A stretch of DNA of 64,000 nt. Source: Candidatus Omnitrophota bacterium (GTDB lineage Bacteria > Omnitrophota > Gorgyraeia > Zapsychrales > Fredricksoniimonadaceae). Below are positions 17,642 through 64,000 of this stretch, one piece after another. The stretch covers positions 728,991-792,990 of the forward strand of contig JBGAJA010000002.1 in assembly GCA_044225175.1 (NCBI GenBank), in the 5' to 3' direction. The notes under the pieces were generated by a model that saw only the letters and a program-made list of their open reading frames with translations, was not told where the DNA came from and made no database searches. How positions within the stretch are numbered: the stretch's first letter is position 1; each line of letters begins with the position of its first letter. Position numbers and translations under genes: made by a program.

Positions 17642-18536
17642 GCTAAAGTCAACAGTCGTTGCAATCGGTGTTTTCGATGGTGTTCATCGTGGTCACCAGC
17701 TTTTAATTGATAATGCTGTGAAAGAGGCTAAGAGGACTAAAGCTAAGTCGATGGTGATTACATTCTTTCCTCATCCAGCCCATGTACTATCTAAGAATAG
17801 CCAATTACCTTATCTGATGTCTTTAGAACAACGCCTAGAGACTTTTAAATCCAGAGGTGTCGATCTGGTCTGGGTCGTGCGTTTTAATAAGCGTTTTGCT
17901 CAGATCAATCCAAGGTCTTTTATTAAGAAGATCTTGGTACAAAACTTAGGTGTAAAATCTATTTATGTGGGAGAGAATTTCCGTTTTGGCCGTAATCGAA
18001 GTGGAGACATTGATCTGTTTAAAGAGATGTCCAAAGACTTTGGTTTTCAGATTCATCCTTTAAAACCTATCAAAGCAGCAGGGGAGATCATTAGCTCTGG
18101 ACGTTTACGAGCGTTAATTCCTCAAGGGCAGTTGAAACAGGCTGAACGATTATTAGGTCGTCCCGTCTCAATTTTAGGTGAAGTCGTTAAAGGTTCCTCT
18201 CGTGGAAAATTGTTAGGGTACCCAACAGCCAATGTTCAATACAATTGCGATGTTCTTCCGCCAAAGGGTGTATATGCAGTTAGGATTACATGGAAGAATA
18301 AGGTTTATTTTGGTATGGCTAATTTAGGAGTAAGGCCTTCTTTTAAAGAAAATGATCCAAAGCCTCTTTTGGAAGTAAACATATTTGATTTTAATAAGAA
18401 TCTTTATGGGCAGAAGATTCTAGTCGAATTTCTTAAGAAAACTCGAGATGAGCGCTCTTTTTCTTCGAAAGAAGCTTTGATTGGTCAAATTCAAAAAGAT
18501 GAACGCATGATCCGTAGTTTCACTGCCTCGTTATAA
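17610..18536 (+). CDS. ribF: Bifunctional riboflavin kinase/FAD synthetase
   Basis: IGVFDGVHRGHQ nucleotidyltransferase motif; C-terminal riboflavin kinase (GYPTANV, GxRPSF). The start MKVIYDLGTT at 17610 is preferred; the ORF-track start at 17550 overlaps truB. Confidence 0.9.
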   Translation: MKVIYDLGTTKLKSTVVAIGVFDGVHRGHQLLIDNAVKEAKRTKAKSMVITFFPHPAHVLSKNSQLPYLMSLEQRLETFKSRGVDLVWVVRFNKRFAQINPRSFIKKILVQNLGVKSIYVGENFRFGRNRSGDIDLFKEMSKDFGFQIHPLKPIKAAGEIISSGRLRALIPQGQLKQAERLLGRPVSILGEVVKGSSRGKLLGYPTANVQYNCDVLPPKGVYAVRITWKNKVYFGMANLGVRPSFKENDPKPLLEVNIFDFNKNLYGQKILVEFLKKTRDERSFSSKEALIGQIQKDERMIRSFTASL

Positions 18537-19868
18537 ATTCTTCAATAATAAACTCTGTTCTTTACGTTCAAATCTTCCGGATAACTTCTCTAAGTGTTTA
18601 CTGATAATTTTATATTCTTGCGATTCATGAATGGGAATATCTTCCTGTCCTAAATGTTCAATGGCGTTAATCACATCTTCTAGTCTAATATCATTGATCG
18701 TACGAGCAGGATGGTAGGCGAATATTTTATTATCATCGACGTAAATCTTACAAAGTAAGTTGGATTCGACTAAATCAAAAGTAACCTGTTGAGCTAAGCG
18801 GGCTGGAATATGCAAATGTTCGGCTATTTGTTGAATGGTACATGGTTTTTCTCCACGCTCAAAATCTTTGACACATCTGTATGTAATTAATAAGGCGACT
18901 AGTTTACGCAAAGATGGACTTGGTGTGATGTTTTCAGGCTCAAACTCGTAAGTTTTTAAATACTGCCTGGCAAAAGAAATTTCCGCACCAAAAAGAAGGA
19001 TCATCCAGCTTAGTTGAAGCCAGACTAAGAAGAGAGGAACTGCAGCTAGACTTCCATAAATAGCATTAGCGTTATTAATCCACACTTGAAAAATAATATA
19101 ACTCCATTGAGTTACTTGATAGAGGGTTCCTGCAATGAATCCTCCCCAAAGTGCAGAAATAAAGTTGACTTGAGTGTTGGGCATAAAAATATAAATGAAT
19201 GTGAACACCAGCCAAATGACGAGAAATGGAATAAAAAAGAAAGCAGCATAGATCAAAGGAACAAGGGGGCCTAAGTATGTAAAATTTTGTGCAATGCTAT
19301 GGACTTGGGTCGATATAAAAACAACAGCGCTGCCTGAACATACCAGAAGCAAAGGACAGATGAGAAATACAGCTAAATAATCACTTAATTTTCTAAGTAT
19401 TGGTTTTCCTTCTTTGATGCCCCAAATATCGTTGAAGGCTTCTTCGATTGTCGTTAATGTTTTAAAGACTCCCCAGAGTAAAAGAGCAAGGCCAATTCCT
19501 GCGAAAACTGTTCCATGGCTTTTTTCAACATACGCTTGAGCCATGTTAAAGATTGCATCAATGAGTTCTTTGTGGGTAGGGAGATTGTGATCAAGTTGTT
19601 CTTTAAGAGTCCCTTCCAGACCAAATCCTTTCATAAGTCCATAAAGCAATGTCATGGAAGGAACAAGTGCGAGGATAGAATAATACGTCATGGAAGCTGC
19701 CTGCAAACGGCTATGCTGCTGATCAAATTTACGCAAAGCCAGAAGAACAGTCTTTAACTGGCGCAACCCAAAGGATTTGAAGAAAGAGAATTTTTCTTCT
19801 GATGTCTTCCAGATATCTTTGGTGAGGAATTGATTTAAGTTTTTGAGTTTATTTTTGATCATAAGCAT
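18531..19868 (-). CDS. YihY/BrkB-family inner-membrane protein with C-terminal extension
   Basis: 445 aa. N-terminal pattern (FDQQHSRLQAASMTYYSILALVPSMTLLYGL) and multiple TM segments typical of the YihY/BrkB family. About 110-aa soluble C-terminal tail. Confidence 0.8.
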   Translation of the reverse strand: MLMIKNKLKNLNQFLTKDIWKTSEEKFSFFKSFGLRQLKTVLLALRKFDQQHSRLQAASMTYYSILALVPSMTLLYGLMKGFGLEGTLKEQLDHNLPTHKELIDAIFNMAQAYVEKSHGTVFAGIGLALLLWGVFKTLTTIEEAFNDIWGIKEGKPILRKLSDYLAVFLICPLLLVCSGSAVVFISTQVHSIAQNFTYLGPLVPLIYAAFFFIPFLVIWLVFTFIYIFMPNTQVNFISALWGGFIAGTLYQVTQWSYIIFQVWINNANAIYGSLAAVPLFLVWLQLSWMILLFGAEISFARQYLKTYEFEPENITPSPSLRKLVALLITYRCVKDFERGEKPCTIQQIAEHLHIPARLAQQVTFDLVESNLLCKIYVDDNKIFAYHPARTINDIRLEDVINAIEHLGQEDIPIHESQEYKIISKHLEKLSGRFERKEQSLLLKNL

Positions 19869-20032: not shown

Positions 20033-23000
20033 ATGAGATCCCAAATTTCCTTATTTACGTTATTTTGTTTTTTGATGGCCAGCATTGTTGGCCCAGTTCC
20101 TATCTCATTTGCCTCATTTACCCAGGAAGTTCATTTGCCAAAACCTGGGGTAATGGTCCATTTAAGTGCCCCTGTAACTCCCCCTTTGCTTAAAGGAATC
20201 AAGGTTCATCTGGATAACCCATTTAGGTTCGATTTTATCCTGGATCCAGGGTACGGTTCCATCGCTGATGCACATAATTTAAGGCAAGAATCCAACCGTC
20301 TAATTAAGTACTTTTTAGCCTCTTTAACGGTCCCAGAAGCCGACCTATGGGTGAACCTAAGCCCCTATGAGAAGGACCGTATAGTACCAGAAAGTTTTGG
20401 CCAAACAGAGATGGGCCGAGACCTTTTAGTCCAAGACTACATGCTCAAACAGATCACAGCTAGTCTAATATACCCAGAAGATGAGGTAGGACGGCGGTTT
20501 TGGAAGAGAATATATGAAGAATCAGCCAAAAGGTATGGAACAACGAATATTCCAGTCAATACCTTCAACAAGGTGTGGATATTGCCTGAGAAGGCAGTAG
20601 TTTATGAGAACTCCAAAGCAGGAACCGCCTATGTGGTGGAGTCTAGGTTGAAGGTGATGTTGGAGGAAGATTACTTATCCATGGATAAAAACACATTGTC
20701 ATCCCTGCCTGTCCGGCAGGCAGGCCCGAAAGCTTCTGTCGAGGATCCAGGCATTAATGAACTAGATGCCCGACAAAAACATTCGGACATGACAAATAAA
20801 TTAGGTAGCCAAATAATCCGTGAAATCGTCATTCCGGAACTTACCAAAGAAATCAATGAAGGATCCAACTTTTCTCAGCTTAGGCAGGTTTATAGTTCTT
20901 TGATTCTGGCCACATGGTATAAGAAGAAAATTAAAGATAGCATCCTTGCTCAGGTGTATTCAGATAAAAATAAAGTCCAGGGGATAAACATCAATGATCC
21001 CCAAGAGAAAGATAAGATTTATCAGCAATATCTCCAGGCCTTCAAAAAAGGTGTCTACAATTACATCAAAGAAGAGAAGGATTTGTCAACTCAGCAACCT
21101 GTCTCTAGAAAGTATTTCTCTGGAGGCGCAGAACTTATTGATGTTGATGCTGCAATGACTATTTTGCATCATGTGAGTTCTGAACAATTAGGTCGCCAAG
21201 AAAATTTGATTGAAGTTTCTAGTCGTTTTGAAGCTATGAGACCAGAAGAAATAAGAAATACAGATCCAGCTATGCTAACTGAGCTAAAAAGTCCTGTGTG
21301 GGTTCATCATCAATTAACCTGGTTTTCCTTAAGTCATGTCAATGGTGTTTTAAGGTCGATTAATTATTTAGAGAAATCTCAGCAAGAATCTCATAGAGAT
21401 AACTATGAAAAGTATTTAGATAACATTAAGAAATTTGGAAAACTTTTTGATGCTTTAGCCTATGCTCCTGTGCGCATTGATACGGCCATTGAAAACCAAG
21501 GAGAATCCATCAATCAAGGAGCGGCTGAGATCATTTCCAATGCTATCGATGCTGTTTTAGAAAAGCAAGGTCATCCTGCTATTGGAAGATTTGGAGTAGG
21601 TTTTTATATGATTTTGTCGGAATTGGAACAAGAGGGAGATCGTGTTCAAGTGTTGACCAAAAATGGAAAGAATCAAACAAGATTTATTGAATTTATGAAA
21701 TATGATGATCAGGTCTTCGTTCGCTGGGAAATTCTTCCTAAAGAATCAGAGAAGGGAACAAAGGTTAGAGTCATTAAATCTTCTTTTAATAAAGAACGCA
21801 CAGAACAACTGATAGATTATTTAAAAGGTCGATTTGCTCGCAATACAAATCTTAATATCCAAATTGTTCATGCAGATGGAAGAAAAGAAATGATGAATGA
21901 AAGGAAAGGATTAATAGGCTTGGATAAAAGATCTATAGGCATCAAGTTTCCTCAAGAGAAAGTTGTGATGCGTTTTCTCAAAGATGGATATGAAATCCAA
22001 GATGATGGTAAAGGTATGGCAGACAAAGTGATCTTTGACAATTTTCTGATTCCCCGGGCAACAACCAAACCAATGCCGCAGGAAGAAGATCATGAAGTAA
22101 AAGTATTTTACAAACCTTCAACTAAAGAAAATCAGAAGACAATAAAGGCCAAGATCAACGTTCAAATCAACGGTCAAATCATCAGTTCATTTGAAAAGAC
22201 TGGATATAATCTTCCTGAAGAATTCTTGTTAGAGTTGTCGCCCTTAAGCTGGATTCCTGAATCCCGCAATAAAATACGTTTAACAAAAGAGCAGGTGATA
22301 TCTGTTATTGAACAAATTTTAGAGAAATCATCAGGACAGGAAAGGGCGCAGCTTCTCAACGCTTTTGCGTTGATTCTAAGAAAGATCCAAGATGAAGTTT
22401 CGACAGACATTATTCAGCTGGCTATTAATCAGGTGCGGCCTTGGATTAAAAGACAGAAAAGCCAGGGCAAGATTATTTTACCTAATGAACCAGGTTTTTT
22501 TGAATTTGATATGGATCAGAAAAATGCAATATATCTAAATCCAGTTTTATTTGATTTTAATCCTGCAGATGTCCCATCCATGCAGCATATTAAGGAGTAT
22601 GATTCGGAGTCGGTCATGCTATACGTTGCTGATTTTGATAGTAAGAGTAAATTGATTTCTTTTGAACATGAAGGATATGTGTTTATTAATAAGACATATT
22701 ATGAGGCCCATAAAGACAATGCGGCACCTATCGATTTATGGCTTGACTCCATCCGTACTGGATACAGGACTCATGGTGAGCCTCCCAAGAAAGGGTCATT
22801 TCATGCTTCTTCTAAGCTCTCCTTACCTTTAAAGAAAAAAACCATGGCCGATAAACTGTCTTTTAGTCATGCTCTCTTAGATGAAATTCGTAAGAGTCTC
22901 AGCGAATTCTTAAAATCAATGCCTCAAGATAATCGGTTAATCTGGATGTCTAAGTTAGAGCAATTGTGGAAGAATCTTTCTGATTCCCCTGGTTTTGATC

Positions 23001-26000
23001 TTAATCGTTTCATTAATGGTATTTTACGTTTTTCTAAGAATGAAGAACAACGTTCTTACAAAATTGAAAATTTAAAAAACACATCATGGGGTTCCGATCC
23101 AATAGTCGCCAATGGGTATGTTTATTTTTTAAAAAAGGGGACTTATGGAAAAGATCCGGTCATAGTAAAGATGGATACAAAAGGAAAAATTAAAGAAATA
23201 AAAGTTGATGGACTGCATTCAGATGGTTTCTTAGGGGTTACTTTAGACGGACTTTTAATATTCAGCCAGAACAGTCATCGTTCTAAGAGTTGGCGTGAAT
23301 TTGTTGATTTGGTTTTGGTTAAAGAAAATGGAAAGAAGAAAGTTTTAGAAGTAGGTGTCAATCATGAATTTCCTTTTGGGATCTTAGCAATGAATGGGCA
23401 TTCCTTATTTGGTGAGGAAATAGTTGTTACTAAAAAAGCGATTTATGCATCTGGCACTACAAATTCATTATATGACCCTATTGAGGATGGGCTTGTTAAG
23501 GTTGATTTTGAAGGTCATTCTGAATTCATCAACTTATCTCAATTAGGCTACACCCGTCCAGTGCCTTACCATTATGTTGATGGGCGTCTTTTTGTCTCGG
23601 TAGTCTCGAAAGATGAGAGACAATGCGTATTGATTATCAACGAATCTGGGAAAATATTGAAAGAAGTTCCTCTTACTGAAAAAATAAGAAGTGCAGTTTT
23701 TGGATCGCAATATCACAATAATGTGGTTGATTTACACGGTGATGTTTATTTTGCTTTAAGGGATACAGTTAAGAGATTGGATTCAAATGGAGAAATCAAA
23801 GATCTTAATTTTGGCAAAAGTTTCGATTTAGGTAAGGATTCTAAAATACCAGAGGAGGATGCCGCAATAGAAGACATTTTTGTCTACAAGCAAGAGGTCT
23901 ATGTTGCCCTTGGGCGAGGATTTTTAGAATATGGAGAAAAGCACCAGAAGTATCTTTTTAGACGATATGATTTTTATAAACTGGATGCTGCTGGAAATTT
24001 TGAAAAAATATGGTCAATAGAATTAAAGGAATTGACAAGAGTGTTGCCTACTCGAGCAGGAATGTTGATAGTCTACAATGATAGTCGAGAACTTTATGAT
24101 AAACTTGGAGTAATTGAGGAAATTGTAAATCATGAGGGGCGAGTTTCTTCTTTAGGTGTTCCGTATGAGGGGATACAAATAGATGTGATTACAAGGTTTT
24201 TAGAAGAACATTCTCGTTTTGTTCGGCAAAATCGGGATTTAACCAATCGTTTCTATGTAAATCTTGCTTATCAAAAAGATTTTAATCTCCTTCAATCTGA
24301 CCAAACGTTAACAGCTCTTTATTTTCTTCCAAAGAACATGCTCAAATATAGAAATGCCCAATTGATTAGAGACTTCAGTGCCTTTATTAAAGACAAAAGT
24401 TTCGATAATTTAAAACAATTTGCCTCTATTCTTCAGCGATTAGATGGTCGTATCAAATCGACTGTCGATGCTGAAGCTCTTTTAAAGCGATGGATTGACT
24501 TGTATGAATCTCTTCATAAAAGAAAGAGCGGTTTAGATAGTTTTTTTGAAATGATGAATGAATTTGGTCAATCTCTATTGGAAGAAGAAACACTTCCTGA
24601 ATTTGCCAAATATTTGTCACAAGATATTGTTTTATATGCGAAGTACCTGCGTGGTGAGCTGGAAGGTTTACTACAAGATAAGGAGTTATCATTTGAGATT
24701 CCCCAAAAGACGAATTTTACAATCCAAGATTTAGATGTTGCTAAGGTCAATATAGCCTATCGTTCTCTACCACAAATCAGGAACTATAAATCTTTAAAAA
24801 CATACGCAAATGCTTTGGGTGAATTATCTTCCAAAGCTGATTTGCGTAGCGCCGAAAGGGAGATTATTTCTGCCATATCAGGTCAGGACCGCTCAGATAA
24901 TATTTGGACACGAGAGCTCGTTCAAAATTCCCGGGATGCGATCAAAACCGCTAAAGGCCATCCAGTTTCCAAAAAGATCACAATTGATAATTTTGTTCGT
25001 AAAGGAACAAATGAATGGATAGTCAGGGTCAGTGATTCTGTGGGGATGGATTTACCCACGCTGATTGGTCCTCTTTTTGTTGTAGGAGAGAGTACGAAGA
25101 TTGATGTTCTTTTGGCCGGTTTTTTTGGAGAGGGGTTTTATACGATATTTGCAGAATATGACAGGGTGAATATTAAAACCAGCGATGGAAATGGAAAAAC
25201 ATACTATTTAACAATTGGTAAGAACACAAGAGGTCTGCCTGTTATCCAACAGATGAGCGAAACAAATGAGCAGTTTAAGGGGACAATCATTGAGCGAGTG
25301 GTTCGGTTCGAGAAAGACAGGCCAAATTTAGAATCGATTTTTGTAGTCCAAGATTTGATTCGTTATGTGGGGGCAATTCAAGGAGTAGACATTATTTATA
25401 ATGGAAAGAAAATCAATGAAGATTTGGAGATTATGGCTCGTGTAACAACTCCTTTTAAAGGAGATATTTCTCTATCTATAACAAGCGCGTCGGGTCATCG
25501 TCGCATTACTCAAGAAGGGCTTTATATAGAACACCTTGAAAAGTGGATTCTTAAATATGTTCCAGGGAAATACCGGTATTTATTGACATTGCGTGGTCTA
25601 AATATAGACCTTCCCAGAGGTGTTCCTGTGACACGAGCGAGAATTGGTATTGCCATGGCTGAGAAGTATCGTGAAACCATTCAGCGTTACGTGGCCAGGG
25701 CTGCTTTGCAGGCGGTCGTGCGAAATTATATTCGCCATGGAGTTATGGTTCCTGGTGTTTCGGATGATTATTTTTCTTATGAAAAGGGTGATTATTCTAT
25801 ATCAAAAGATATTTATAGGGATGCTCAACTTATAAATGAGAACCAAATGCAAGGAATTGATTTTTCCCGATATGTCATTACTGATAATGATAGCGAGAGT
25901 GAGAAGGTAAGAAAAAATCGTAATCTCGAATATTTGGTGACATTAATTGAAGTTGAAGAAAAAGGTAAAATTTTGAGCCTTCAATCTATCAGAGAAGAAT

Positions 26001-26992
26001 TATGGAGGAAAAAGGATGAGTTCATTCGTAGTTTGGAAAAGAAATTAGAGTTCTCACAGGCTTTTCTAGATGATATGACGCTTGGGAATGCTTTAAGAAA
26101 ATCAAAAGAGAAGAAAAGTCTTAGAATAGATATTCCTGATAGCGTGGTAGGCCAGATAAAGTCGTTAGGTCTGTATAAATTTTTGTTAGATCAAATGGTT
26201 GGTTTGGTTGCTGAGAAACCCGTCACAATTAAGTTTTATTATGACGAAGATGACCCTGCGAAGGCGTATTTCGTGAGGCGCTCAAATCAGATGTATTGGA
26301 ACTTATTTTGTAATTTGGATGATATTAAAGTGTTTATCGATATTTTGAATAATAAAGAAAATAAAACTGGTGCATTTTCATTCTTTAAAGATACGTTAAA
26401 TTTGGTGACTCATGAATTGGCTCATCAAGATGAACCTGATGGTCCAACGCATCAACAAGAACAAATTGATGATAGTAAGAAAAAAGAATTGCCTCATTGG
26501 GTAGATGATGAGGAGTTGGAAGCGATCGCTGGAACATTTGCCTATCGTCAAAGATTGGTTATGGCAGACTATCTGTATGCATTAGAGAAAGGAAATTGGC
26601 AACAGCTTATTTCGGCATTACCTAAAGGGTTGATTAAGCAAACAAAAAATATTAAAGATTTGCGCTTCTTTATTAATTCATCAAAGAAACGTACAGCCAC
26701 AGAGGTAACAGAAGAAGATGAGGCAATGAATACACCATCCAAGAACAGCGCGCTAACTGTTAATACTCCAATTATAGCTGGGAGTACAAATACAGGTGGA
26801 ATTGATTTTACCACCAATAAAATTCCTTTGGACATTCAAAATAGACGAGAAAGTATAAAATTTCATCTCGATCCTGCTATGCTCTATCAACTCCAAGACG
26901 CCCCTGGTTTCGCACCCGTGATTATTAGCATGCAACCTATGACAAATGTAAGGAATTTCTTGGGCATTAGTGATCCTTCCTTGAATAATTGA
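20033..26992 (+). CDS. Giant secreted multidomain protein (about 2.3k aa) with two GHKL (Hsp90/sacsin-type) ATPase-like modules and a C-terminal HExxH motif
   Basis: Signal-peptide-like N-terminus MRSQISLFTLFCFLMASIVGPVPISFASF; ATG at 20033 is preferred to the TTG at 19985. Module 1 about 21520-21610: EIISNAIDAV followed by GRFGVGFYM (Bergerat N-box and G2-box, Hsp90/sacsin-like). Module 2 about 24910-25150: ELVQNSRDAI, SDSVGMDL (G1-like), GFFGEGFYTIF (G2). HELAH at 26411-26425. Confidence 0.85.
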   Translation: MRSQISLFTLFCFLMASIVGPVPISFASFTQEVHLPKPGVMVHLSAPVTPPLLKGIKVHLDNPFRFDFILDPGYGSIADAHNLRQESNRLIKYFLASLTVPEADLWVNLSPYEKDRIVPESFGQTEMGRDLLVQDYMLKQITASLIYPEDEVGRRFWKRIYEESAKRYGTTNIPVNTFNKVWILPEKAVVYENSKAGTAYVVESRLKVMLEEDYLSMDKNTLSSLPVRQAGPKASVEDPGINELDARQKHSDMTNKLGSQIIREIVIPELTKEINEGSNFSQLRQVYSSLILATWYKKKIKDSILAQVYSDKNKVQGININDPQEKDKIYQQYLQAFKKGVYNYIKEEKDLSTQQPVSRKYFSGGAELIDVDAAMTILHHVSSEQLGRQENLIEVSSRFEAMRPEEIRNTDPAMLTELKSPVWVHHQLTWFSLSHVNGVLRSINYLEKSQQESHRDNYEKYLDNIKKFGKLFDALAYAPVRIDTAIENQGESINQGAAEIISNAIDAVLEKQGHPAIGRFGVGFYMILSELEQEGDRVQVLTKNGKNQTRFIEFMKYDDQVFVRWEILPKESEKGTKVRVIKSSFNKERTEQLIDYLKGRFARNTNLNIQIVHADGRKEMMNERKGLIGLDKRSIGIKFPQEKVVMRFLKDGYEIQDDGKGMADKVIFDNFLIPRATTKPMPQEEDHEVKVFYKPSTKENQKTIKAKINVQINGQIISSFEKTGYNLPEEFLLELSPLSWIPESRNKIRLTKEQVISVIEQILEKSSGQERAQLLNAFALILRKIQDEVSTDIIQLAINQVRPWIKRQKSQGKIILPNEPGFFEFDMDQKNAIYLNPVLFDFNPADVPSMQHIKEYDSESVMLYVADFDSKSKLISFEHEGYVFINKTYYEAHKDNAAPIDLWLDSIRTGYRTHGEPPKKGSFHASSKLSLPLKKKTMADKLSFSHALLDEIRKSLSEFLKSMPQDNRLIWMSKLEQLWKNLSDSPGFDLNRFINGILRFSKNEEQRSYKIENLKNTSWGSDPIVANGYVYFLKKGTYGKDPVIVKMDTKGKIKEIKVDGLHSDGFLGVTLDGLLIFSQNSHRSKSWREFVDLVLVKENGKKKVLEVGVNHEFPFGILAMNGHSLFGEEIVVTKKAIYASGTTNSLYDPIEDGLVKVDFEGHSEFINLSQLGYTRPVPYHYVDGRLFVSVVSKDERQCVLIINESGKILKEVPLTEKIRSAVFGSQYHNNVVDLHGDVYFALRDTVKRLDSNGEIKDLNFGKSFDLGKDSKIPEEDAAIEDIFVYKQEVYVALGRGFLEYGEKHQKYLFRRYDFYKLDAAGNFEKIWSIELKELTRVLPTRAGMLIVYNDSRELYDKLGVIEEIVNHEGRVSSLGVPYEGIQIDVITRFLEEHSRFVRQNRDLTNRFYVNLAYQKDFNLLQSDQTLTALYFLPKNMLKYRNAQLIRDFSAFIKDKSFDNLKQFASILQRLDGRIKSTVDAEALLKRWIDLYESLHKRKSGLDSFFEMMNEFGQSLLEEETLPEFAKYLSQDIVLYAKYLRGELEGLLQDKELSFEIPQKTNFTIQDLDVAKVNIAYRSLPQIRNYKSLKTYANALGELSSKADLRSAEREIISAISGQDRSDNIWTRELVQNSRDAIKTAKGHPVSKKITIDNFVRKGTNEWIVRVSDSVGMDLPTLIGPLFVVGESTKIDVLLAGFFGEGFYTIFAEYDRVNIKTSDGNGKTYYLTIGKNTRGLPVIQQMSETNEQFKGTIIERVVRFEKDRPNLESIFVVQDLIRYVGAIQGVDIIYNGKKINEDLEIMARVTTPFKGDISLSITSASGHRRITQEGLYIEHLEKWILKYVPGKYRYLLTLRGLNIDLPRGVPVTRARIGIAMAEKYRETIQRYVARAALQAVVRNYIRHGVMVPGVSDDYFSYEKGDYSISKDIYRDAQLINENQMQGIDFSRYVITDNDSESEKVRKNRNLEYLVTLIEVEEKGKILSLQSIREELWRKKDEFIRSLEKKLEFSQAFLDDMTLGNALRKSKEKKSLRIDIPDSVVGQIKSLGLYKFLLDQMVGLVAEKPVTIKFYYDEDDPAKAYFVRRSNQMYWNLFCNLDDIKVFIDILNNKENKTGAFSFFKDTLNLVTHELAHQDEPDGPTHQQEQIDDSKKKELPHWVDDEELEAIAGTFAYRQRLVMADYLYALEKGNWQQLISALPKGLIKQTKNIKDLRFFINSSKKRTATEVTEEDEAMNTPSKNSALTVNTPIIAGSTNTGGIDFTTNKIPLDIQNRRESIKFHLDPAMLYQLQDAPGFAPVIISMQPMTNVRNFLGISDPSLNN

Positions 26993-56737: not shown

Positions 56738-58303
56738 ATGACCCAGAAGTTTTCACAAATTGTATTCACACTAATAGCTATTTGTCTTTTGACAACAGTT
56801 GCACAAGCTAACAATTTGTCCATATCTAACGTTACTTTAGGGACCAGAAATCCTGGTGCCAATTCTCTTATTGTTAAATTTAATGTGAGTTGGGATCATT
56901 CTTGGCACAATAAGATTAATCATGATGCCGCATGGCTTACTATTCGACTACACAATACATCTGATACCACAACCAATAAAAAAATTTGTGAGGTTAGTGC
57001 GAGTGGAATAAATCCAGCAGGGTCTTCCGTCGGAACAGCTACAAATTTGGAATTTTATGTACCTTCAGATAAAAAAGGGGCATTTTTAAGAAGATCTTCT
57101 AATGGTAACGTTATTAATGTGTCCACACAAGGTGCTCAGTTGACAATTGATTACAGTAGTTGTGGTTTTTCTGATGATGACCAAATTATTGCCAGCGTTT
57201 TTGGGGTTGAAATGGTTTTTATTCCTCAAGGTGATTTTTACGCTGGAGATTATGATACTAGCACTGCTTCATTAGATCAGGGAACTGCAGATAATCGTCC
57301 ATGGCACATAATTAATGAAAACTCAATTTCAGTAAACAATCCTTCTACAGGTGGATTTCGCTATATTTCTAATAATAACTCAGGAGAAGTAGCCACAGGA
57401 GCATCGTTTGCTATTCCTAATAATTTTCCCAAAGGTTACGCTCCATTTTATGTCATGAAATATGAAATTACTGAAGGTCAATGGGTTGAATTTATCAATT
57501 CTTTAGGATCTGCTGCTGCCCGCTCTAATCGCGATTTGACCGATAATAATCATAAGAATTCCGATGCAGTGACAGCAAGAAATACAATTAGTTGTTCAGG
57601 TTCGCCATTGAGTTGTTCTACTCTACGTCCTGCCCGCGCAGTAAGTTTTTTAAGTTGGATGGATTTAGCAGCATTTTTAGATTGGAATGCTCTTCGACCT
57701 ATGAGTGAATTAGAGTTTGAAAAAATTGCCAGAGGTCCAAGTTTACCAATCCCCGGTGAATATGTATGGGGAAATACTATAATTGCACCAGCTGCTGATT
57801 TAAGCGGTGATGAAGATGGCTCCGAAACAATCACTACTACAGATGCCAATGTCAATATTCTTGGTAATTCAAGCTTTGTTGGGGGAGATGCCCAAGCAGG
57901 ACCTATACGATCCGGAATTTTTGCTACAAGTGCAACTAATAGAACAACCGCTGGTGCTGGTTACTATGGAGTCATGGAATTGTCAGGTAATCTTAAAGAA
58001 CACGTAGTCACAATCGGAAATCCTTCAGCGCTTACTTTCGACGGTACCCAAGAAGGAGATGGTGTTTTGACCTCAGTTTCTGGATTTGAAGGTAATGCGA
58101 ATACTATTTCTTGGCCAGGAACTGATGCTACTCCAGCAAATGGTGTAACAGGAGCGGATGGTTCTGGTTTTCGAGGTGGATCATGGGCTGATTTGACTAA
58201 TAGTTTATTAAGGACATCTGATCGTAGTGAAGCTTCGTTATCTTCAACATCAGCAGCAGATAATTTTGGCGGTAGAGGGGTTCGAACATATGATGGCAAT
58301 TAA
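56738..58303 (+). CDS. Secreted FGE-sulfatase (SUMF1/DUF323)-fold protein, GldJ/GldK-like, paralog A
   Basis: Signal peptide ...TTVAQA; beta-rich N-terminal domain; FGE-fold motifs FYVMKYEITEGQW, RPARAVSFLSWMDLAAFLDWNALRPMSELEFEKIARG, VWGN, RGGSW. Confidence 0.75.
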   Translation: MTQKFSQIVFTLIAICLLTTVAQANNLSISNVTLGTRNPGANSLIVKFNVSWDHSWHNKINHDAAWLTIRLHNTSDTTTNKKICEVSASGINPAGSSVGTATNLEFYVPSDKKGAFLRRSSNGNVINVSTQGAQLTIDYSSCGFSDDDQIIASVFGVEMVFIPQGDFYAGDYDTSTASLDQGTADNRPWHIINENSISVNNPSTGGFRYISNNNSGEVATGASFAIPNNFPKGYAPFYVMKYEITEGQWVEFINSLGSAAARSNRDLTDNNHKNSDAVTARNTISCSGSPLSCSTLRPARAVSFLSWMDLAAFLDWNALRPMSELEFEKIARGPSLPIPGEYVWGNTIIAPAADLSGDEDGSETITTTDANVNILGNSSFVGGDAQAGPIRSGIFATSATNRTTAGAGYYGVMELSGNLKEHVVTIGNPSALTFDGTQEGDGVLTSVSGFEGNANTISWPGTDATPANGVTGADGSGFRGGSWADLTNSLLRTSDRSEASLSSTSAADNFGGRGVRTYDGN

Positions 58304-59948
58304 AACCATAGCATTCACACTACTAGCTTTCTTGGTATTAGTACCATCTAGCTATGCCAATAATTTACAGTTAAAAAATTTGAATGTGGTAAGTTCAGAT
58401 ACAGCTTCAGAAACGATGACTTTCTCTTTTGACTTAACTCAAGAAAATAGCTGGAGAACTAATACCAATAATACAATTAGTTATGATGCTGTATGGGTTT
58501 TTATGAAATATTCAACTGATGGTGGAATTACCTGGAAGCATGGTACCATGAATGGAAGCGGTGTTAATCCCGCAGGTTTTTACGCTCCAGCTAATTTCCA
58601 GATTGAAGTCCCAGTCATTGACCAAAAAGGTTTCTTTTTGCATCGTTCTGATTTTGGTTCAGGAAACATTGCTCCAACAGGAATCAAATTTGTATGGAAC
58701 TATCACCAAGATGGTTTAACAACTGCGGTGGCTGAAGCTTCAAATACAATTCATAAAATATTCGGTATTGAAATGGTCTATATTCCCACAGGCGCATTTT
58801 ATGCGGGAGATGGGGACAGTTCTGCAGAATTCCATCTAAAAGCTGGATCAGCAGACAATACTCCTTGGTATATTCAAAGTGAAACTGGTTTCATGACAAC
58901 CAATACTCCTAATGGAGGGTATTATTACGTAAGTACTGGAGCTACTGGTGAATATGCAGATGGTGCCCCCTTCCAAATAACAAATGATTTTCCTAAAGGT
59001 TATAATGCATTTTATTTAATGAAATATGAATTAACTGAAGGACAATGGGTCAGCTTCTTTAATACACTTTCTAATGCAGCGAAAGTCAATCGCGATATTA
59101 CAACAGGTACAGGTGTAGGTGGAAAGGCCTCTGATGGTGTGGTTAATCGTAATACTATCGCTTGGGACCACTTACAACCTTCATTACCGGCTACCACTTT
59201 AAGACCATCTCGACCTGTTAGCTATGTTTCATGGCCTGATGTTGCAGCTTATGCAGCATGGGCAGGTCTTCGTCCTATGACAGAATTAGAATTTGAAAAA
59301 GCTGCACGTGGGAAAGGTAAAGAAGCCATTGCTGATGAGTTTGCTTGGGGTAATACAAGTTATTCTAGCGCTAATCCTTCTGATATCGATCCTAATGCTG
59401 ATGAAAATGGCACAGAAACAATTTTGACTGGTTCTGCAAACTTTAATGGTAATTCTTCAGGGTTTACCAGTGGTGATGGACGTCCAGGTGGGCCAGCAGA
59501 TGGTCAAGTTGGACCTCTTCGTTCTGGAATTTTTGCCTCTGCTCTTTCGAATAGAAATAAGAGCGGAGCAGGTTTTTATGGCAATATGGAACTTTCCGGT
59601 AATTTATATGAGCCCGTTGTCACCATAGGTCGTACTCAAGGACTTTCTTTTCTGGGTTCTCATGGAAATGGTGAATTAACAAGTGCTTCCGGATATGAAG
59701 GTTTTGCATCCAATAGTGATTGGCCTGGATATGATTCAGCACATGGTGTTGTAGATCACACTAAAGGTATTGGTTACCGAGGGGGAGATTTTAAATCATC
59801 TCTTCGTGCTTTTGAAATTTCTTCTCGAACAAATGCAGCTAAAGATCCAGATACTCAAGGATGTCTTCAACGTTATGATTCAGGTGCAGGATGCGTTGGG
59901 TTAAGTGGAGTCTTTTACGGTGGGCGTTTAGCTAGAACAGCACCTTAA
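58290..59948 (+). CDS. Secreted FGE-sulfatase (SUMF1/DUF323)-fold protein, GldJ/GldK-like, paralog B
   Basis: Start at MMAIKTIAFTLLAFLVLVPSSYA (signal peptide), overlapping paralog A by 14 nt. Colinear with paralog A: FYLMKYELTEGQW, RPSRPVSYVSWPDVAAYAAWAGLRPMTELEFEKAARG, AWGN, RGGDF. Confidence 0.75.
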   Translation: MMAIKTIAFTLLAFLVLVPSSYANNLQLKNLNVVSSDTASETMTFSFDLTQENSWRTNTNNTISYDAVWVFMKYSTDGGITWKHGTMNGSGVNPAGFYAPANFQIEVPVIDQKGFFLHRSDFGSGNIAPTGIKFVWNYHQDGLTTAVAEASNTIHKIFGIEMVYIPTGAFYAGDGDSSAEFHLKAGSADNTPWYIQSETGFMTTNTPNGGYYYVSTGATGEYADGAPFQITNDFPKGYNAFYLMKYELTEGQWVSFFNTLSNAAKVNRDITTGTGVGGKASDGVVNRNTIAWDHLQPSLPATTLRPSRPVSYVSWPDVAAYAAWAGLRPMTELEFEKAARGKGKEAIADEFAWGNTSYSSANPSDIDPNADENGTETILTGSANFNGNSSGFTSGDGRPGGPADGQVGPLRSGIFASALSNRNKSGAGFYGNMELSGNLYEPVVTIGRTQGLSFLGSHGNGELTSASGYEGFASNSDWPGYDSAHGVVDHTKGIGYRGGDFKSSLRAFEISSRTNAAKDPDTQGCLQRYDSGAGCVGLSGVFYGGRLARTAP

Positions 59949-59985: not shown

Positions 59986-62900
59986 ATGTCAGATAAAAAA
60001 TTAAAATTGAAAACTTCAAATCGTCTACTACTATGCTTGGCTCTGTTAGCGTTTTCTGTAGTCGGTTTCGTTGTCTCTAAAGCCTTTGCTCAATACACTG
60101 GCGGCAATCAAACTTCTATTGAAGAAGCCACGATTGGAAGCAACATTTATGTTGGCGGTTCTCAAACCAATACTCCCTATGCTAGCTCTGATGGAACAGG
60201 ATCTTTGTCCCATGGTGCTGCAACCAAACTCGTTTTTAGTGTTATTCCTTCAGCAGAAAAACACGGTATAGCCTTTAGTCGCCAACCTGTTGTAGTCATT
60301 GAAGATGCTAATGGAAATATAGTTACTAGTGATAATTCAACTCAAGTAACCATTGCAATTCTTAATAATCCAGGCAATGGTGTCTTAAGAGGAGCTACTA
60401 CCATCCAGGCAGTTAATGGTTCTGCTAATTATTCCGACTTAAACATTACAAAAGCTGGACAACTTTATACATTGCAAGCAACTGCTGAAGGATTAACATC
60501 AGCTATTTCTTCTCCATTTGATGTACAGGTTGGAACAGGTCCTCAGGGTACTGCTACTTGGATAAGTACTTTAGGAGCATACCGTATTTTTACATGGATT
60601 GTAGATAACAACCAAAGACTGCCTTTAACCGGTGATACCTGTAATGATACTGTAATTTATAAAGCTGATGGGACTTCCGAAACAACGCTAACGATGGGAA
60701 CACCAGATCTCGTAAATAATTGGTGTAAATCTGATTTGACTTGGACACCTTCTAACTCTCAAATTTCTTATTTTGCAAATATTTCAATTATTCACTCTTC
60801 TACGACTCTTGAAAATTATATACCTTTAACTTTATCTGGTGGTTTTGCTCGTGATACATATGGTAACAATATCAACTGGCAAGACATTGCTCTCATCAAG
60901 GCTAAAACAGACACCATTAACTGGCAAGATATTGGAGTTATTAAAAGTAGCACAGATACAGTTAATTGGCAGGATGTCAGTGTTATTCTTTCCAATACAA
61001 ATTCTATTAAATCCATCACCAGTACTATTTCTACAAATGTCAATTGGCAAGACATTGATCGTATGTCCCAATCAGGTGTCAATTGGATGGATGTGGCTCG
61101 AACAACTTTAGTTGGGATTAATTGGAATGATTTCTCAATATTATCAAATGTTGGTATTAATTGGGCTGATTTTAGCGTCCTTACTAAGGGTGGGATCAAT
61201 TGGAATGATATTAGCGTGTTAGGTAAAGCTCATGTTAATTGGGCTGATTTCTCAAAACTTTCTTCTTTAGGAATTAATTGGAATGATATGGACAAGCTTT
61301 TTAAGGCCGGCGTGAATTGGCAAAGCTTTTCCTTATTATCAAATACAGGAATTAATTGGTATGACATGGCTATCATGTCTGGAGCAAGAATTGATTGGTC
61401 AAACACAATTAATTGGTACAGTCTTGCCGCTTTAACAACTTCAGGAGTAAATTGGAATGATTTAGCTATTTTATCAGTCAATAATATTAATTGGAATGAT
61501 ATCAAAATTTTGTCTACCGTTGGGATCAATTGGAATGATTTGAATATTTTAAGTAAGTCAGGAATTAATTGGCGTGATATAGATCTTTTAACCACGGCTG
61601 GAATTAATTGGGTAGACTTTGGAATTTTAGGTAAAGCTGGAATCAATTGGAATGATTTAGGAGTGTTAGCTAAAACAGGAATTAATTGGCAAGATTTAGG
61701 AGTTTTTACTAAAGCTGGCATCAATTGGAACGATTTAGGTGTTTTAACTAAAACGGGAATTAATTGGTTGGATTTACAAGTTTTATCTCGCACAGGAATT
61801 AATTGGAGTGATATTAATGTTTTAAGTAAGACAGGAATTAACTGGCAAGACTTTACGGCATTGAGTAAAGTCGGAATCAACTGGAATGATTTAGGAGTAT
61901 TAGCAAAGACTGGAATCAACTGGCAAGACTTAGGAGTGTTAAGTAAGGCTGGAATCAACTGGAATGATTTAGGAATATTAGCCAAGACAGGAGTTAATTG
62001 GCAAGATTTTGGAGTACTAAGTAAGGCTGGAATTAACTGGAATGATTTAGGAGTATTGGCCAAAAGTGGAATTAACTGGCAAGATTTTGCAGCAGTGAGC
62101 AAGGTAGGGATCAATTGGAATGATTTGCAAGTCATGCATTCACTTGGAATCAACTGGCAAGATTTTGCAGCGTTGAGTAAAGTTGGAATCAACTGGAATG
62201 ATTTAGGAGTATTAGCAAAGACCGGAATCAACTGGCAAGACTTTGCAGTATTAAGTAAGAATGGAATCAACTGGAATGATTTAGGAGTGTTGGCAAAGAC
62301 AGGAATCAACTGGCAAGATTTTGGAGTGTTGAGTAAGACGGGAATTAACTGGAATGACTTAAATGTGTTAAGTAGAACTGGAGTTAATTGGCAAGATTTT
62401 GGAGTGTTAAGTAAGGTTGGAGTCAACTGGAATGATTTAGGAGTGTTAGCCAAGAGTGGAATTAATTGGCAAGATTTAGGAGTATTGAGTAAGACAGGAA
62501 TCAATTGGAATGATTTAGGAGTATTAGCAAAGACAGGAATCAACTGGCAAGATTTAGGAGTGTTAAGTAAGACCGGAATTAACTGGAATGACTTAAATGT
62601 GTTAAGTAGGACCGGAGTAAACTGGATGGATTTAGCAGTGTTCAGTAAAGCCGGAGTTAACTGGAATGATTGGGGAATATTAGGAAAGAGCGGAATCAAT
62701 TGGCAAGACTTTGCAGCGTTGAGCAAGGTAGGGATCAATTGGAATGACCTAGTTACATTAAGTAAGACCGGAGTTAACTGGCAAGATTTTGCAGCATTAA
62801 GTAAGACGGGAATTAACTGGAATGACTTAAATGTGTTAAGTAGAACCGGGATTAACTGGATAGATTTAGCAGTGTTTAGTAAATCTGGAGTTAACTGGAA

Positions 62901-64000
62901 TGATTGGGGAATATTAGGAAAGAGTGGAATCAACTGGCAAGACTTTGCAGCGTTGAGTAAAGTTGGAATCAACTGGAATGATTTAGGAGTGTTGGCGAAG
63001 ACCGGAATCAACTGGCAAGATTTAGGAGTATTAAGCAAGACAGGAATTAATTGGAATGACATGCAGGTATTGCATGCAACAGGAATCAACTGGGTTGATT
63101 TAAGTGTATTTAGCAAGGTAGGAATCAATTGGAATGATTGGAGTGTGTTAGGCAAGAGTGGAATTAACTGGCAAGATTTTGGAGTATTAAGCAAGGTAGG
63201 AGTTAATTGGAATGATTTAGGAGTGTTGGCGAAGACCGGAATCAACTGGCAAGATTTAGGAGTGTTGAGTAAGGTTGGGATCAATTGGAATGATATTGGA
63301 GTATTAGCGAAGAGTGGAATTAACTGGCAAGATTTAGCAGCCTTTAGTAAGGCAGGGGTTAACTGGAATGATTGGGGAATATTAGGAAAGAGTGGAATCA
63401 ACTGGCAAGATTTTGCAGCATTGAGCAAAGTTGGAATCAACTGGAATGATTTAGGAGTATTAGCAAAGACCGGAATCAACTGGCAAGACTTAGGAGTGTT
63501 AAGTAAGGCTGGAATCAACTGGAATGATTTAGGAGTATTAGCAAAGACTGGAATTAACTGGCAAGATTTAGCAGCCTTTAGTAAGGCAGGGGTTAACTGG
63601 AATGATTGGGGAATATTAGGAAAGAGTGGAATCAACTGGCAAGACTTTGCAGCATTGAGCAAAGTTGGAATCAACTGGAATGATTTAGGAGTATTAGCAA
63701 AGACCGGAATCAACTGGCAAGACTTTGGAGTGTTAAGTAAGGCTGGAATCAACTGGAATGATTTAGGAGTATTAGCAAAGACAGGAATCAACTGGCAAGA
63801 TTTTGGAGTATTAAGCAAGGTAGGAGTTAACTGGAATGATTTAGCAGTGTTAGCAAAGACCGGGGTTAACTGGCAAGATTTTGCAGCAGTGAGTAAGGTT
63901 GGGATCAATTGGAATGATTTGCAAGTCATGCATTCACTTGGAATTAACTGGCATGATTTTGCAGCATTGAGCAAAGTCGGAGTTAACTGGAATGATTTAG
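59986..64000 (+). CDS. Giant secreted tandem-repeat protein (3' end beyond window): signal peptide, Ig-like N-terminal region, then at least 80 copies of a 13-aa G(I/V)NW(N/Q)D(L/F)(G/A)(V/A)L(S/A)K(T/A) repeat
   Basis: ATG at 59986-59988. MSDKKLKLKTSNRLLLCLALLAFSVVGFVVSKAFAQ signal peptide. Manual translation of this frame is open to the window end. Residues about 60-160 resemble a bacterial Ig-like domain (VxVxDANGNxV...GxAxxGxAxF..LxIxKAGxYTLxAxAxGL). Repeats begin about 60868. Confidence 0.8.
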   Translation, partial: MSDKKLKLKTSNRLLLCLALLAFSVVGFVVSKAFAQYTGGNQTSIEEATIGSNIYVGGSQTNTPYASSDGTGSLSHGAATKLVFSVIPSAEKHGIAFSRQPVVVIEDANGNIVTSDNSTQVTIAILNNPGNGVLRGATTIQAVNGSANYSDLNITKAGQLYTLQATAEGLTSAISSPFDVQVGTGPQGTATWISTLGAYRIFTWIVDNNQRLPLTGDTCNDTVIYKADGTSETTLTMGTPDLVNNWCKSDLTWTPSNSQISYFANISIIHSSTTLENYIPLTLSGGFARDTYGNNINWQDIALIKAKTDTINWQDIGVIKSSTDTVNWQDVSVILSNTNSIKSITSTISTNVNWQDIDRMSQSGVNWMDVARTTLVGINWNDFSILSNVGINWADFSVLTKGGINWNDISVLGKAHVNWADFSKLSSLGINWNDMDKLFKAGVNWQSFSLLSNTGINWYDMAIMSGARIDWSNTINWYSLAALTTSGVNWNDLAILSVNNINWNDIKILSTVGINWNDLNILSKSGINWRDIDLLTTAGINWVDFGILGKAGINWNDLGVLAKTGINWQDLGVFTKAGINWNDLGVLTKTGINWLDLQVLSRTGINWSDINVLSKTGINWQDFTALSKVGINWNDLGVLAKTGINWQDLGVLSKAGINWNDLGILAKTGVNWQDFGVLSKAGINWNDLGVLAKSGINWQDFAAVSKVGINWNDLQVMHSLGINWQDFAALSKVGINWNDLGVLAKTGINWQDFAVLSKNGINWNDLGVLAKTGINWQDFGVLSKTGINWNDLNVLSRTGVNWQDFGVLSKVGVNWNDLGVLAKSGINWQDLGVLSKTGINWNDLGVLAKTGINWQDLGVLSKTGINWNDLNVLSRTGVNWMDLAVFSKAGVNWNDWGILGKSGINWQDFAALSKVGINWNDLVTLSKTGVNWQDFAALSKTGINWNDLNVLSRTGINWIDLAVFSKSGVNWNDWGILGKSGINWQDFAALSKVGINWNDLGVLAKTGINWQDLGVLSKTGINWNDMQVLHATGINWVDLSVFSKVGINWNDWSVLGKSGINWQDFGVLSKVGVNWNDLGVLAKTGINWQDLGVLSKVGINWNDIGVLAKSGINWQDLAAFSKAGVNWNDWGILGKSGINWQDFAALSKVGINWNDLGVLAKTGINWQDLGVLSKAGINWNDLGVLAKTGINWQDLAAFSKAGVNWNDWGILGKSGINWQDFAALSKVGINWNDLGVLAKTGINWQDFGVLSKAGINWNDLGVLAKTGINWQDFGVLSKVGVNWNDLAVLAKTGVNWQDFAAVSKVGINWNDLQVMHSLGINWHDFAALSKVGVNWNDL
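60868..64000 (+). repeat. 39-bp (13-codon) coding tandem repeat array, organised as a 78-bp higher-order repeat, degenerate at the 5' side and near-identical toward the 3' side
   Basis: Repeated units such as ggaatcaactggcaagacttaggagtgttaagtaaggct and ggaatcaactggaatgatttaggagtattagcaaagacc recur head-to-tail to the end of the window. Confidence 0.9.

Follow-up and report, generated by a model that had tools for sequence, protein, structure and literature searches.

Within a 64,000-nucleotide stretch of contig JBGAJA010000002.1 from a Candidatus Omnitrophota bacterium (the whole stretch is called the window below), we analysed a complete gene at 20033..26992 on the + strand, which encodes a giant protein of 2,319 amino acids (aa) plus a stop codon. 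The protein belongs to a family whose members are predicted to be exported and carry the same N-terminal domain (NTD) and C-terminal domain (CTD), with very different cargo in between. This bracket, formed by the first ~370 and the last ~65 residues, was absent from the first-pass annotation of the window and is more important than the cassette of ATPase-like and zincin-like domains that it encloses here.

The open reading frame (ORF) is uninterrupted, with possible starts at TTG 19985 and ATG 20033 and its end at 26992. Read from ATG 20033, it is the single intact ORF of about 7 kb that had been annotated, and its product is identical to database protein P0001. The earlier description of the surroundings was also correct; a BrkB/YihY-family gene lies divergently upstream at 18531-19868 (-), and the dcw genes mraZ, rsmH, ftsI and murE follow from 27123. 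The GC content of the window is about 37% and even throughout. Scans of the full protein with Pfam, NCBIfam, PADLOC and PHROGs gave zero matches above threshold, and for the anti-phage GHKL systems (MORC-like and others) no PADLOC match to the protein was found at E<=0.1. The source is a metagenome-type assembly and the NTD holds an in-frame hairpin insert (see below), hence one might ask if this is a decaying pseudogene or a chimeric assembly instead of a working gene. With a 7-kb reading frame unbroken, all catalytic motifs intact and the same end-to-end layout in nine further members, we find this hardly credible.

The protein is predicted to be exported via Sec. A Sec-type signal peptide (aa 1-27, 20033..20113, +) with predicted cleavage after SFA opens the chain. 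The N-terminus (MRSQISLFTLFCFLMASIVGPVPISFA/SF, the slash marking the cleavage site) consists of MRSQ, a 20-residue hydrophobic run and then SFA/SF, and no other part of the chain is hydrophobic (in a Kyte-Doolittle scan, only 19-residue stretches starting at aa 3-12 average >=1.6). The same n-h-c layout is found in ~190 paralogues, where the segment closes with AxA (e.g. AYA/QD and AQA/QE). The sequence, the hydropathy scan and the conservation among paralogues thus agree on a positive n-region, an h-region and an AxA-type site, and substantiate the signal-peptide-like start noted in the first-pass annotation. Neither the hydropathy scan nor the sequence revealed a hydrophobic or lipobox anchor besides the signal peptide.

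The bracket family

A search with the full-length protein gave >3,000 matches. Most of them had 60-73% identity over just 15-18% of the query, and their Pfam domains were very different. Upon mapping, the common parts were aa 1 to ~368 and aa ~2251 to 2313, with identities of 50-77%. We hence define a family-wide NTD (aa ~28-368, 20114..21136, +) and a family-wide CTD (aa ~2251-2319, 26783..26989, +), the latter with the pattern GGIDF...IKFHLDPAML...GFAPVII.MQP. The CTD is present in 116 of 120 NTD-bearing matches, where it ends a median of 7 residues before the C-terminus, and two of the four remaining proteins (P0003 and P0018) have a divergent CTD. What had been described as a Ser/Thr/Asn-rich C-terminal tail is a linker with a conserved 65-aa domain behind it. 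Neither domain had a match in Pfam or NCBIfam, the NTD had none among PDB sequences either, and no relative of the NTD was found in phage records.

An HMMER search with the NTD against 1.84 billion cluster representatives (50% clustering) gave 8,062 matches at E<=1e-3 and 6,243 at E<=1e-30, and the match begins within the first ~60 residues in all 150 representatives listed. A scan of one genome per GTDB species detected at least 589 NTD loci. The best 80 of these are all in metagenome-assembled genomes (MAGs) of Omnitrophota type, some bearing the generic submitter label 'uncultured Planctomycetales'. Among these 80 we observed up to 8 loci per MAG, up to three genes within 21 kb at one locus, and complete members (n=55) of 781-3,143 aa. 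The shortest member with both NTD and CTD has 627 aa, and no NTD-CTD protein devoid of cargo occurred among the members found.

The cargo is highly variable. Our own Pfam scans of seven members revealed a protein kinase together with HATPase_c, a phosphoglycerate kinase (PGK), an M48 peptidase, and an M23 peptidase together with a kinase, and three of the seven were without a match. Precomputed Pfam matches comprise methyltransferases, GGDEF, receiver domains, SNF2/DEAD helicases, PPDK_N, HAD and GNAT, and further ATP-grasp, PLD, deaminase, WD40, HEAT and TPR. The paralogue P0021 (1,350 aa) carries a full phosphoglycerate kinase (Pfam PGK, E=2.8e-36) between its NTD and CTD.

The NTD DNA of paralogues from the same MAG is 68-79% identical with few exact runs >30 nt. 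Recent gene conversion between the paralogues was considered and rejected on these grounds, and as long identical tracts are absent, the paralogues are old copies held by selection at the protein level. No neighbouring gene family is common to the loci (the best was found at 11 of 80). Taken together, the alignments show a family of predicted Sec-exported proteins built of signal peptide, NTD, a linker with D-x-A-M motifs (see below), cargo, a further D-x-A-M motif and CTD, with the closest relatives all in Omnitrophota-type genomes. In a limited literature search we found no paper describing the bracket domains.

A perfect hairpin with an 8-bp stem (CCTGCCTG-TCCGG-CAGGCAGG, 20704..20724, +) is situated in frame in a variable NTD loop (aa ~225-270) that reads 'SSLPVRQAGP...ARQKHSDMTN', and it has no second copy within the window. 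The same NTD loops of paralogues hold other recurring low-complexity inserts, namely 'SSPNVLIGDP', 'VIPAKAGIQ', 'SLPLVGRVREGG' and 'VGAGLAPALDKRAPARG'. By their sequences the loop inserts look like small palindromic repeat elements that were inserted and translated in frame.

The cassette of two GHKL modules and a zincin-like domain

The first GHKL module of the cargo (aa 440-930, 21350..22822, +) is Hsp90-like and permuted, and its family profile (A2) matched HtpG (7u4c) at E=2.7e-10. Its N-box EIISNAIDA (aa 499-507, 21527..21553, +) and G2 box GRFGVGFYM (aa 518-526, 21584..21610, +) were already recognised in the first-pass annotation, and G2 comes just 10 aa past the N-box. That annotation found no clear G1 box and suspected the module to be degenerate, which our results contradict. 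We detected a perfect but displaced G1 box, DDGKGM (aa 657-662, 22001..22018, +), ~140 aa downstream of G2; in the alignment it falls on residues 50-108 of HtpG, a segment located before the G2 box there. The match of the profile to HtpG is split into three out-of-order stretches, as profile positions 62-73 (N-box) correspond to HtpG residues 29-40, positions 78-180 (G2 plus sheet) to residues 113-205, and positions 194-251 (strand, DxGxGM and lid helix) to residues 50-108. The order along the chain is N-box, G2, sheet and G1, and not the canonical N-box, G1 and G2. The N-box E, N and D (along with its A), GxFGxG and DxGxGM are invariant in 8 of 8 aligned family members. Because the ATP-binding boxes are invariant in all eight, we conclude that module 1 is under selection and not degenerate.

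The permuted module is found in Omnitrophota members and in P0122, P0123 and P0126, whereas the relatives P0121, P0124 and P0125 have it in canonical order. In a PDB sequence search with the module 1 profile, all 41 matches were Hsp90, HtpG, TRAP1 or Grp94. It appears that module 1 is a natural segment-permuted Bergerat fold with the ATP lid supplied from another part of the chain, which bears on the tolerance of the GHKL fold to rewiring. A limited literature search revealed no paper describing a permuted GHKL fold.

Module 2 and the conserved domain following it (aa 1590-2000, 24800..26032, +) are in canonical order, with the N-box ELVQNSRDA at aa 1628, the G1 box DSVGMD at aa 1668 and the G2 box GFFGEGFYTIF at aa 1696, the three motifs reported before. 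The module was then called complete, which holds for the number and order of its motifs but not for G1, as DSVGM has one residue fewer than the canonical DxGxGM. The single sequence matched the Hsp90 N-domain in phmmer at E=1.7e-4, and the family profile (A4) spans the entire Hsp90 N-terminal domain at E=3e-17, with all 60 matches listed being Hsp90, HtpG, TRAP1 or Grp94. A search for relatives with the same profile gave one new protein. The ExxxNxxD residues of the N-box are invariant or nearly so in the family alignments of both modules, and over the G2-plus-sheet segment hhalign shows the two modules to be homologous (probability 91%, E=9e-7).

Two Hsp90-type GHKL modules had been proposed from the motifs, to be checked by profile searches. 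Pfam found no HATPase_c or HATPase_c_3 match on the single sequence, while the homologues of both modules do match PF13589 (HATPase_c_3) and PF02518 (HATPase_c) at equivalent places, and the two family profiles found Hsp90 structures at the E-values given above. The check hence failed for Pfam on the single sequence but succeeded with the family profiles. Judged by these profiles both modules belong to the Hsp90 type. As for the Hsp90/HtpG family proper, we found neither its three-domain layout nor a match to the curated whole-protein model; the NCBIfam HSP90 family matched module 2 below threshold, with 20 bits where 455 are required (E=1.8e-4).

The likeness to sacsin suggested in the first-pass annotation was not borne out. 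Such a reading would make the protein a rare, stand-alone, secreted sacsin-like tandem HATPase chaperone with a degenerate module 1. It is favoured by the two Hsp90-like modules per chain, like in sacsin, and by a weak match of the NCBIfam sacsin N-terminal model NF047352 at module 1 (E=2.8e-4). We consider it very unlikely, as that match reaches 21.3 bits against a cut-off of 50 and no single stretch passes, the PDB matches listed for both module profiles are all of the Hsp90 family, module 1 keeps every ATP-binding box invariant, and cassette and bracket are both recurrent.

Between the modules is a middle region (aa 931-1589, 22823..24799, +) with no detectable relatives; no homologue covers it and it has no Pfam match. 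By eye it is beta-rich and then helical, and BLAST revealed no internal repeats in aa 931-1600. The homologue P0018 has precomputed Pfam matches of the WD40 family somewhere along its length.

The zincin-like domain (aa ~2039-2145, 26147..26467, +) contains the motif HELAH (aa 2127-2131, nt 26411-26425) ~430 aa past the G2 box of module 2, and His2140. HExxH is invariant in 12 of 12 aligned proteins sharing module 2, at least five of which are without the NTD, and the closest of the 12 have '(T)H' 8-10 residues after the motif, corresponding to H2140 here. In an AlphaFold model of aa 1990-2319, just the core at aa ~2039-2139 is confident (pLDDT 80-92); this core consists of a helix, three strands, a helix and the HELAH-bearing helix. 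When this core was compared to known structures, BepA (7.1) and PepO (6.7) scored highest among the peptidases, with jannalysin, selecase and abylysin at 6.0-6.4, and neprilysin-type enzymes, aminopeptidases, Wss1, SprT and YbeY came next. It should be noted that the list also contains Hsp90 C-terminal domains, at 6.2-7.0, and that the call of a zincin fold is therefore not clean. Taken with the conserved motif, the HELAH region is better read as a minimal zincin-like metal site, in line with the possible zincin motif proposed before, and a peptidase activity is putative.

The cassette of module 1, module 2 and zincin-like domain recurs between NTD and CTD in P0002, P0003, P0005, P0010, P0012, P0013, P0018, P0029 and P0052. 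The architecture was previously regarded as rare; its occurrence in at least nine other Omnitrophota paralogues speaks against this. A word-filtered search of the protein database with the cargo alone gave 8 proteins. The relatives cover aa ~440-930, aa ~1600-2150 or the two together; P0002, P0003, P0005 and P0018 carry the NTD and P0121-P0127 do not. In P0121, P0124, P0125, P0126 and P0127 the cassette stands alone, in proteins of 1,400-2,300 aa from other sources that are without signal peptide, NTD and CTD. P0125 is labelled a Patescibacteria 'ATP-binding protein'. The start of P0127 holds a segment resembling a papain-type peptidase. The cargo of the giant protein is an older, self-contained cassette of two Hsp90-type GHKL modules and a small HExxH zincin-like domain, an uncharacterised unit that occurs in at least two phyla.

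Some features near the end of the window are mentioned for completeness. An ORF of >1,333 aa in 60001-64000 (+) leaves the window at its end; it opens with the signal peptide LLLCLALLAFSVVGFVVSKAFA/Q and has, from ~61079, ~70 tandem 39-nt (13-aa) units of the form 'INW(N/Q)D(L/F)..L.K.G'. A 914-aa ORF on the minus strand (61230-63974) is a shadow of this repeat ORF, and the GC skew rises sharply to 0.46 at 60001-64000. The adjacent + strand ORFs 56738-58303 and 58227-59948 (~520-570 aa) are paralogous and share a 68-nt stretch of 84% identity at 57419 and 58983; the translation of ORF 58227-59948 has a signal-peptide-like start.

Linkers, distant homologues and possible destination

The borders of the cargo are marked by a short motif, D-x-A-M, which occurs in the giant protein at aa 372, 411, 2229 and 2280. 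The first two copies (DAAM at aa 372 and DPAM at aa 411) lie in linker 1 (21146..21274, +), where the motif is ~10-fold enriched after the NTD among 194 members. DEAM at aa 2229 (26717..26728, +) lies in linker 2 ahead of the CTD, and one copy is built into the CTD itself ('LDPAML'). Among 195 members, the density of D-x-A-[MQ] is 1.43 per 100 aa in the 90 aa after the NTD and 0.85 in the ~75 aa around the start of the CTD, compared to 0.13 in the cargo and 0.01 in the NTD. At least one copy follows the NTD in 80% of 194 members, at a median of 8 residues past 'FSGG', and 58% have a copy within 40 residues before 'GGID', mostly 7-12 residues away. The enrichment at both borders suggests a recognition or processing site.

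A tblastn search against plasmids found distant homologues of the NTD on six Streptomyces replicons, with 23-28% identity to NTD ~64-372 and E-values down to 7e-25 (E=1e-32 in a pairwise comparison). Two of these proteins, from the megaplasmids NZ_CP023408.1 (4726-7047) and NZ_CP107961.1 (3756-6206), were read; they have 773 and 816 aa and are unannotated, with no Pfam or NCBIfam match. Their layout is a signal peptide, a variable N-terminal half, a 'GGIDFTTLELRY' segment, the NTD core, 'GGVDL/F' and a C-terminal membrane anchor, and in one of the two a stalk rich in Pro and Thr and an LAxTG (sortase-type) motif come directly ahead of the anchor. The N-terminal halves of the two proteins differ, one having HSE...CxxC, which resembles a deaminase motif. 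As the homologues have both a signal peptide and a C-terminal membrane anchor, the NTD core is extracytoplasmic in another phylum too.

Based on these data we propose, with about even confidence, that NTD and CTD are a shared device for export or delivery, and that the cargo of the giant protein is an ATP-dependent effector remodelling or cutting proteins in prey or host cells. Sec would carry the family proteins over the inner membrane; the shared step after that, be it attachment, sorting or delivery, would fall to NTD and CTD. D-x-A-M would serve for recognition or for cleavage that frees the cargo. The cargo would then be active in the cytoplasm of a prey or host cell, these ultra-small bacteria being putative predators or parasites. 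In the present protein, two ATP-driven Hsp90-like clamps might hold or remodel a client protein that the zinc site cuts. The periplasm and the medium contain no ATP. As GHKL ATPases, kinases and helicases need nucleotides, the cargo would have to act inside another cell, and this agrees with the life as predators or parasites that preprints propose for Omnitrophota. Effector stays the most plausible of the functions speculated upon in the first-pass annotation.

The Streptomyces homologues may also be read differently. As their C-terminus is a membrane anchor, with LAxTG ahead of it in one case, NTD and CTD might instead anchor resident proteins in the periplasm, outer membrane or surface layer of the producing cell, as a displayed arsenal of enzymes and chaperones that is never delivered. 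That no injection machinery is linked to the genes and that the NTD is more conserved (60-77%) than most mere secretion signals would fit, and signal peptides on cytoplasmic-type enzyme domains are also reported by the preprints on far longer Omnitrophota proteins. Still, the nucleotides that GHKL ATPases, kinases, helicases and PGK need are absent from periplasm and medium, and the proteins have no hydrophobic or lipobox anchor besides the signal peptide; we thus hold residence in the envelope to be rather unlikely.

The same homologues bear on a further possibility, that the N-terminal helix stays uncleaved and tethers the enzymes to the inner membrane, where they use cytoplasmic ATP and NTD and CTD are modules for assembly or regulation. 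The repertoire of cargo is typical of cytoplasmic enzymes, and a preprint takes roughly half of the giant Omnitrophota proteins to be anchored in the membrane, with domains on the cytoplasmic side. However, from a positive n-region with an AxA site behind it one would predict export and cleavage rather than an N-out anchor, and the Streptomyces core sits between a signal peptide and a C-terminal anchor (with LAxTG in one), i.e. outside the cell, which makes such a tether improbable.

Several points weigh against delivery into another cell. The roles of the domains and of the delivery are inferred from sequence and models, of which that of the NTD is of moderate confidence and matched no known translocation, adhesion or pore-forming fold, and the AlphaFold2 (AF2) model of the CTD is of low confidence (57-77). 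Cleavage at D-x-A-M is a guess from the enrichment of the motif, and ATP binding by module 2 is putative as its G1 box is without one glycine. The family genes are not linked to any secretion or translocation machinery, their neighbours being unrelated housekeeping genes. Finally, the PGK cargo looks metabolic and not offensive, which is hard to square with a simple toxin role.

The motif GG[IV]D[LF] opens the CTD in Omnitrophota, resembles 'FSGG' at the end of the NTD, and flanks the Streptomyces core on both sides. This pattern is consistent with NTD and CTD forming a single unit from which the cargo loops out, a hypothesis that has no statistical support beyond the short motif. Further, we speculate that they may be the halves of a single carrier domain with D-x-A-M as release sites, in a new, phylum-wide delivery system, though we would not call this the probable arrangement. 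If true, such a carrier would take cargo from ~230 to >3,000 aa and export thousands of cytoplasmic-type, nucleotide-dependent enzymes. These would be sent to prey or host cells, or to an ATP-containing compartment outside the cytoplasm, and the carrier would give direct access to the ways in which uncultured ultra-small bacteria exploit other cells. Two candidate relationships of the CTD were tried and rejected. That the CTD adjoins the core in the Streptomyces proteins is at best suggestive, with just GG[IV]D[LF][TS] matching on both sides (4 bits). A CTD that repeats the first NTD hairpin ('IKVHLDNPF' and 'IKFHLDPAM') gave only 8 columns in hhalign, with P=0.012 and a probability of 3.6%, and so lacks significance.

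Omnitrophota occur widely, hardly any have been cultured, and they are suspected of a predatory or parasitic way of life. With thousands of members predicted to be exported, the bracket family is a concrete candidate for their effector repertoire, and NTD plus CTD is a simple sequence tag by which this repertoire can be listed in any genome.

Comparison with known systems

Both modules share with Hsp90/HtpG the N-box ExxxNxxDA, the G1 box DxGxGM, the G2 box GxFGxGF and a four-stranded sheet closing with 'GT.V', but in module 1 the G1/lid segment is shifted behind the sheet and in module 2 G1 is one residue short. Unlike Hsp90, the giant protein is predicted to be exported, has two modules per chain ~1,100 aa apart, and no middle or C-terminal Hsp90 domain was detectable in it by sequence. 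With sacsin it shares several Hsp90-like ATPase modules in one very long chain. It differs from sacsin in being bacterial and putatively exported, in carrying a zincin-like domain, in matching the sacsin profile only below threshold, and in having no ubiquitin-like, DnaJ or HEPN domain in Pfam. The zincin-like domain is similar to the minimal zincins (the M48/HtpX catalytic core, the minigluzincins selecase and jannalysin, and Wss1/SprT) in the modelled succession of helix, three strands, helix and HExxH helix, and in the conserved HExxH and later His of the cassette proteins. Unlike these, it has no peptidase profile match in Pfam, and its putative third ligand comes 9 residues past the motif.

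At the level of the whole family, MARTX toxins come to mind, as they too have conserved N- and C-terminal regions around exchangeable effector domains, with cargo that varies between similar proteins. MARTX effectors are freed by cutting at short linker motifs, whereas cleavage is only a guess in the bracket family. The giant protein has no glycine-rich repeats and no cysteine protease domain in Pfam, its predicted Sec signal peptide differs from the type I secretion of MARTX, and its brackets are single globular modules without similarity to MARTX. The features of polymorphic toxins (family repeats, CPD, Rhs/YD, LXG and TPS domains) likewise had no match in Pfam or NCBIfam, and the analogy is confined to the layout.

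Cargo proteins of the type IX secretion system (T9SS) carry a signal peptide and a CTD of ~80 aa, and TpsA proteins a signal peptide and an N-terminal TPS domain. Like these, the family combines a Sec signal peptide with a conserved terminal module on many unrelated cargo proteins per organism, but it has both an N-terminal and a C-terminal module and occurs in a different phylum, and it matches neither the T9SS CTD nor the TPS beta-helix in sequence or fold. The low-confidence AF2 model of the CTD contains no immunoglobulin-like seven-strand beta-sandwich as in the T9SS CTD, the host phylum is Omnitrophota and not Bacteroidota, and no PorU, PorV or TpsB partner was found beside the family genes at the loci examined.

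In two preprints (bioRxiv 10.1101/2023.11.21.568195, 10.64898/2026.06.07.730766), other giant Omnitrophota proteins ('Archaeovorins' and others) are described with >=10,000 aa, many transmembrane helices, SecA-like or dockerin domains, and adjacent genes for type II secretion or Tad systems. They belong to the same phylum and likewise have signal peptides on cytoplasmic-type domains (HATPase_c, methyltransferase, HAD, GGDEF, PPDK_N, HEAT and WD40). The bracket family in contrast has 0.6-4 kaa, no transmembrane helices and dispersed genes, and is defined by NTD and CTD, of which keyword look-ups in those preprints found no mention.

Modular exported proteins with common trafficking modules and swapped cargo are thus already known from MARTX, polymorphic toxins, T9SS cargo and TpsA. 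What is new, as far as can be told, are the NTD and CTD modules themselves, the scale of the family, its distribution strongly centred on Omnitrophota, the permuted Hsp90-like module, and the double-GHKL and zincin cassette.

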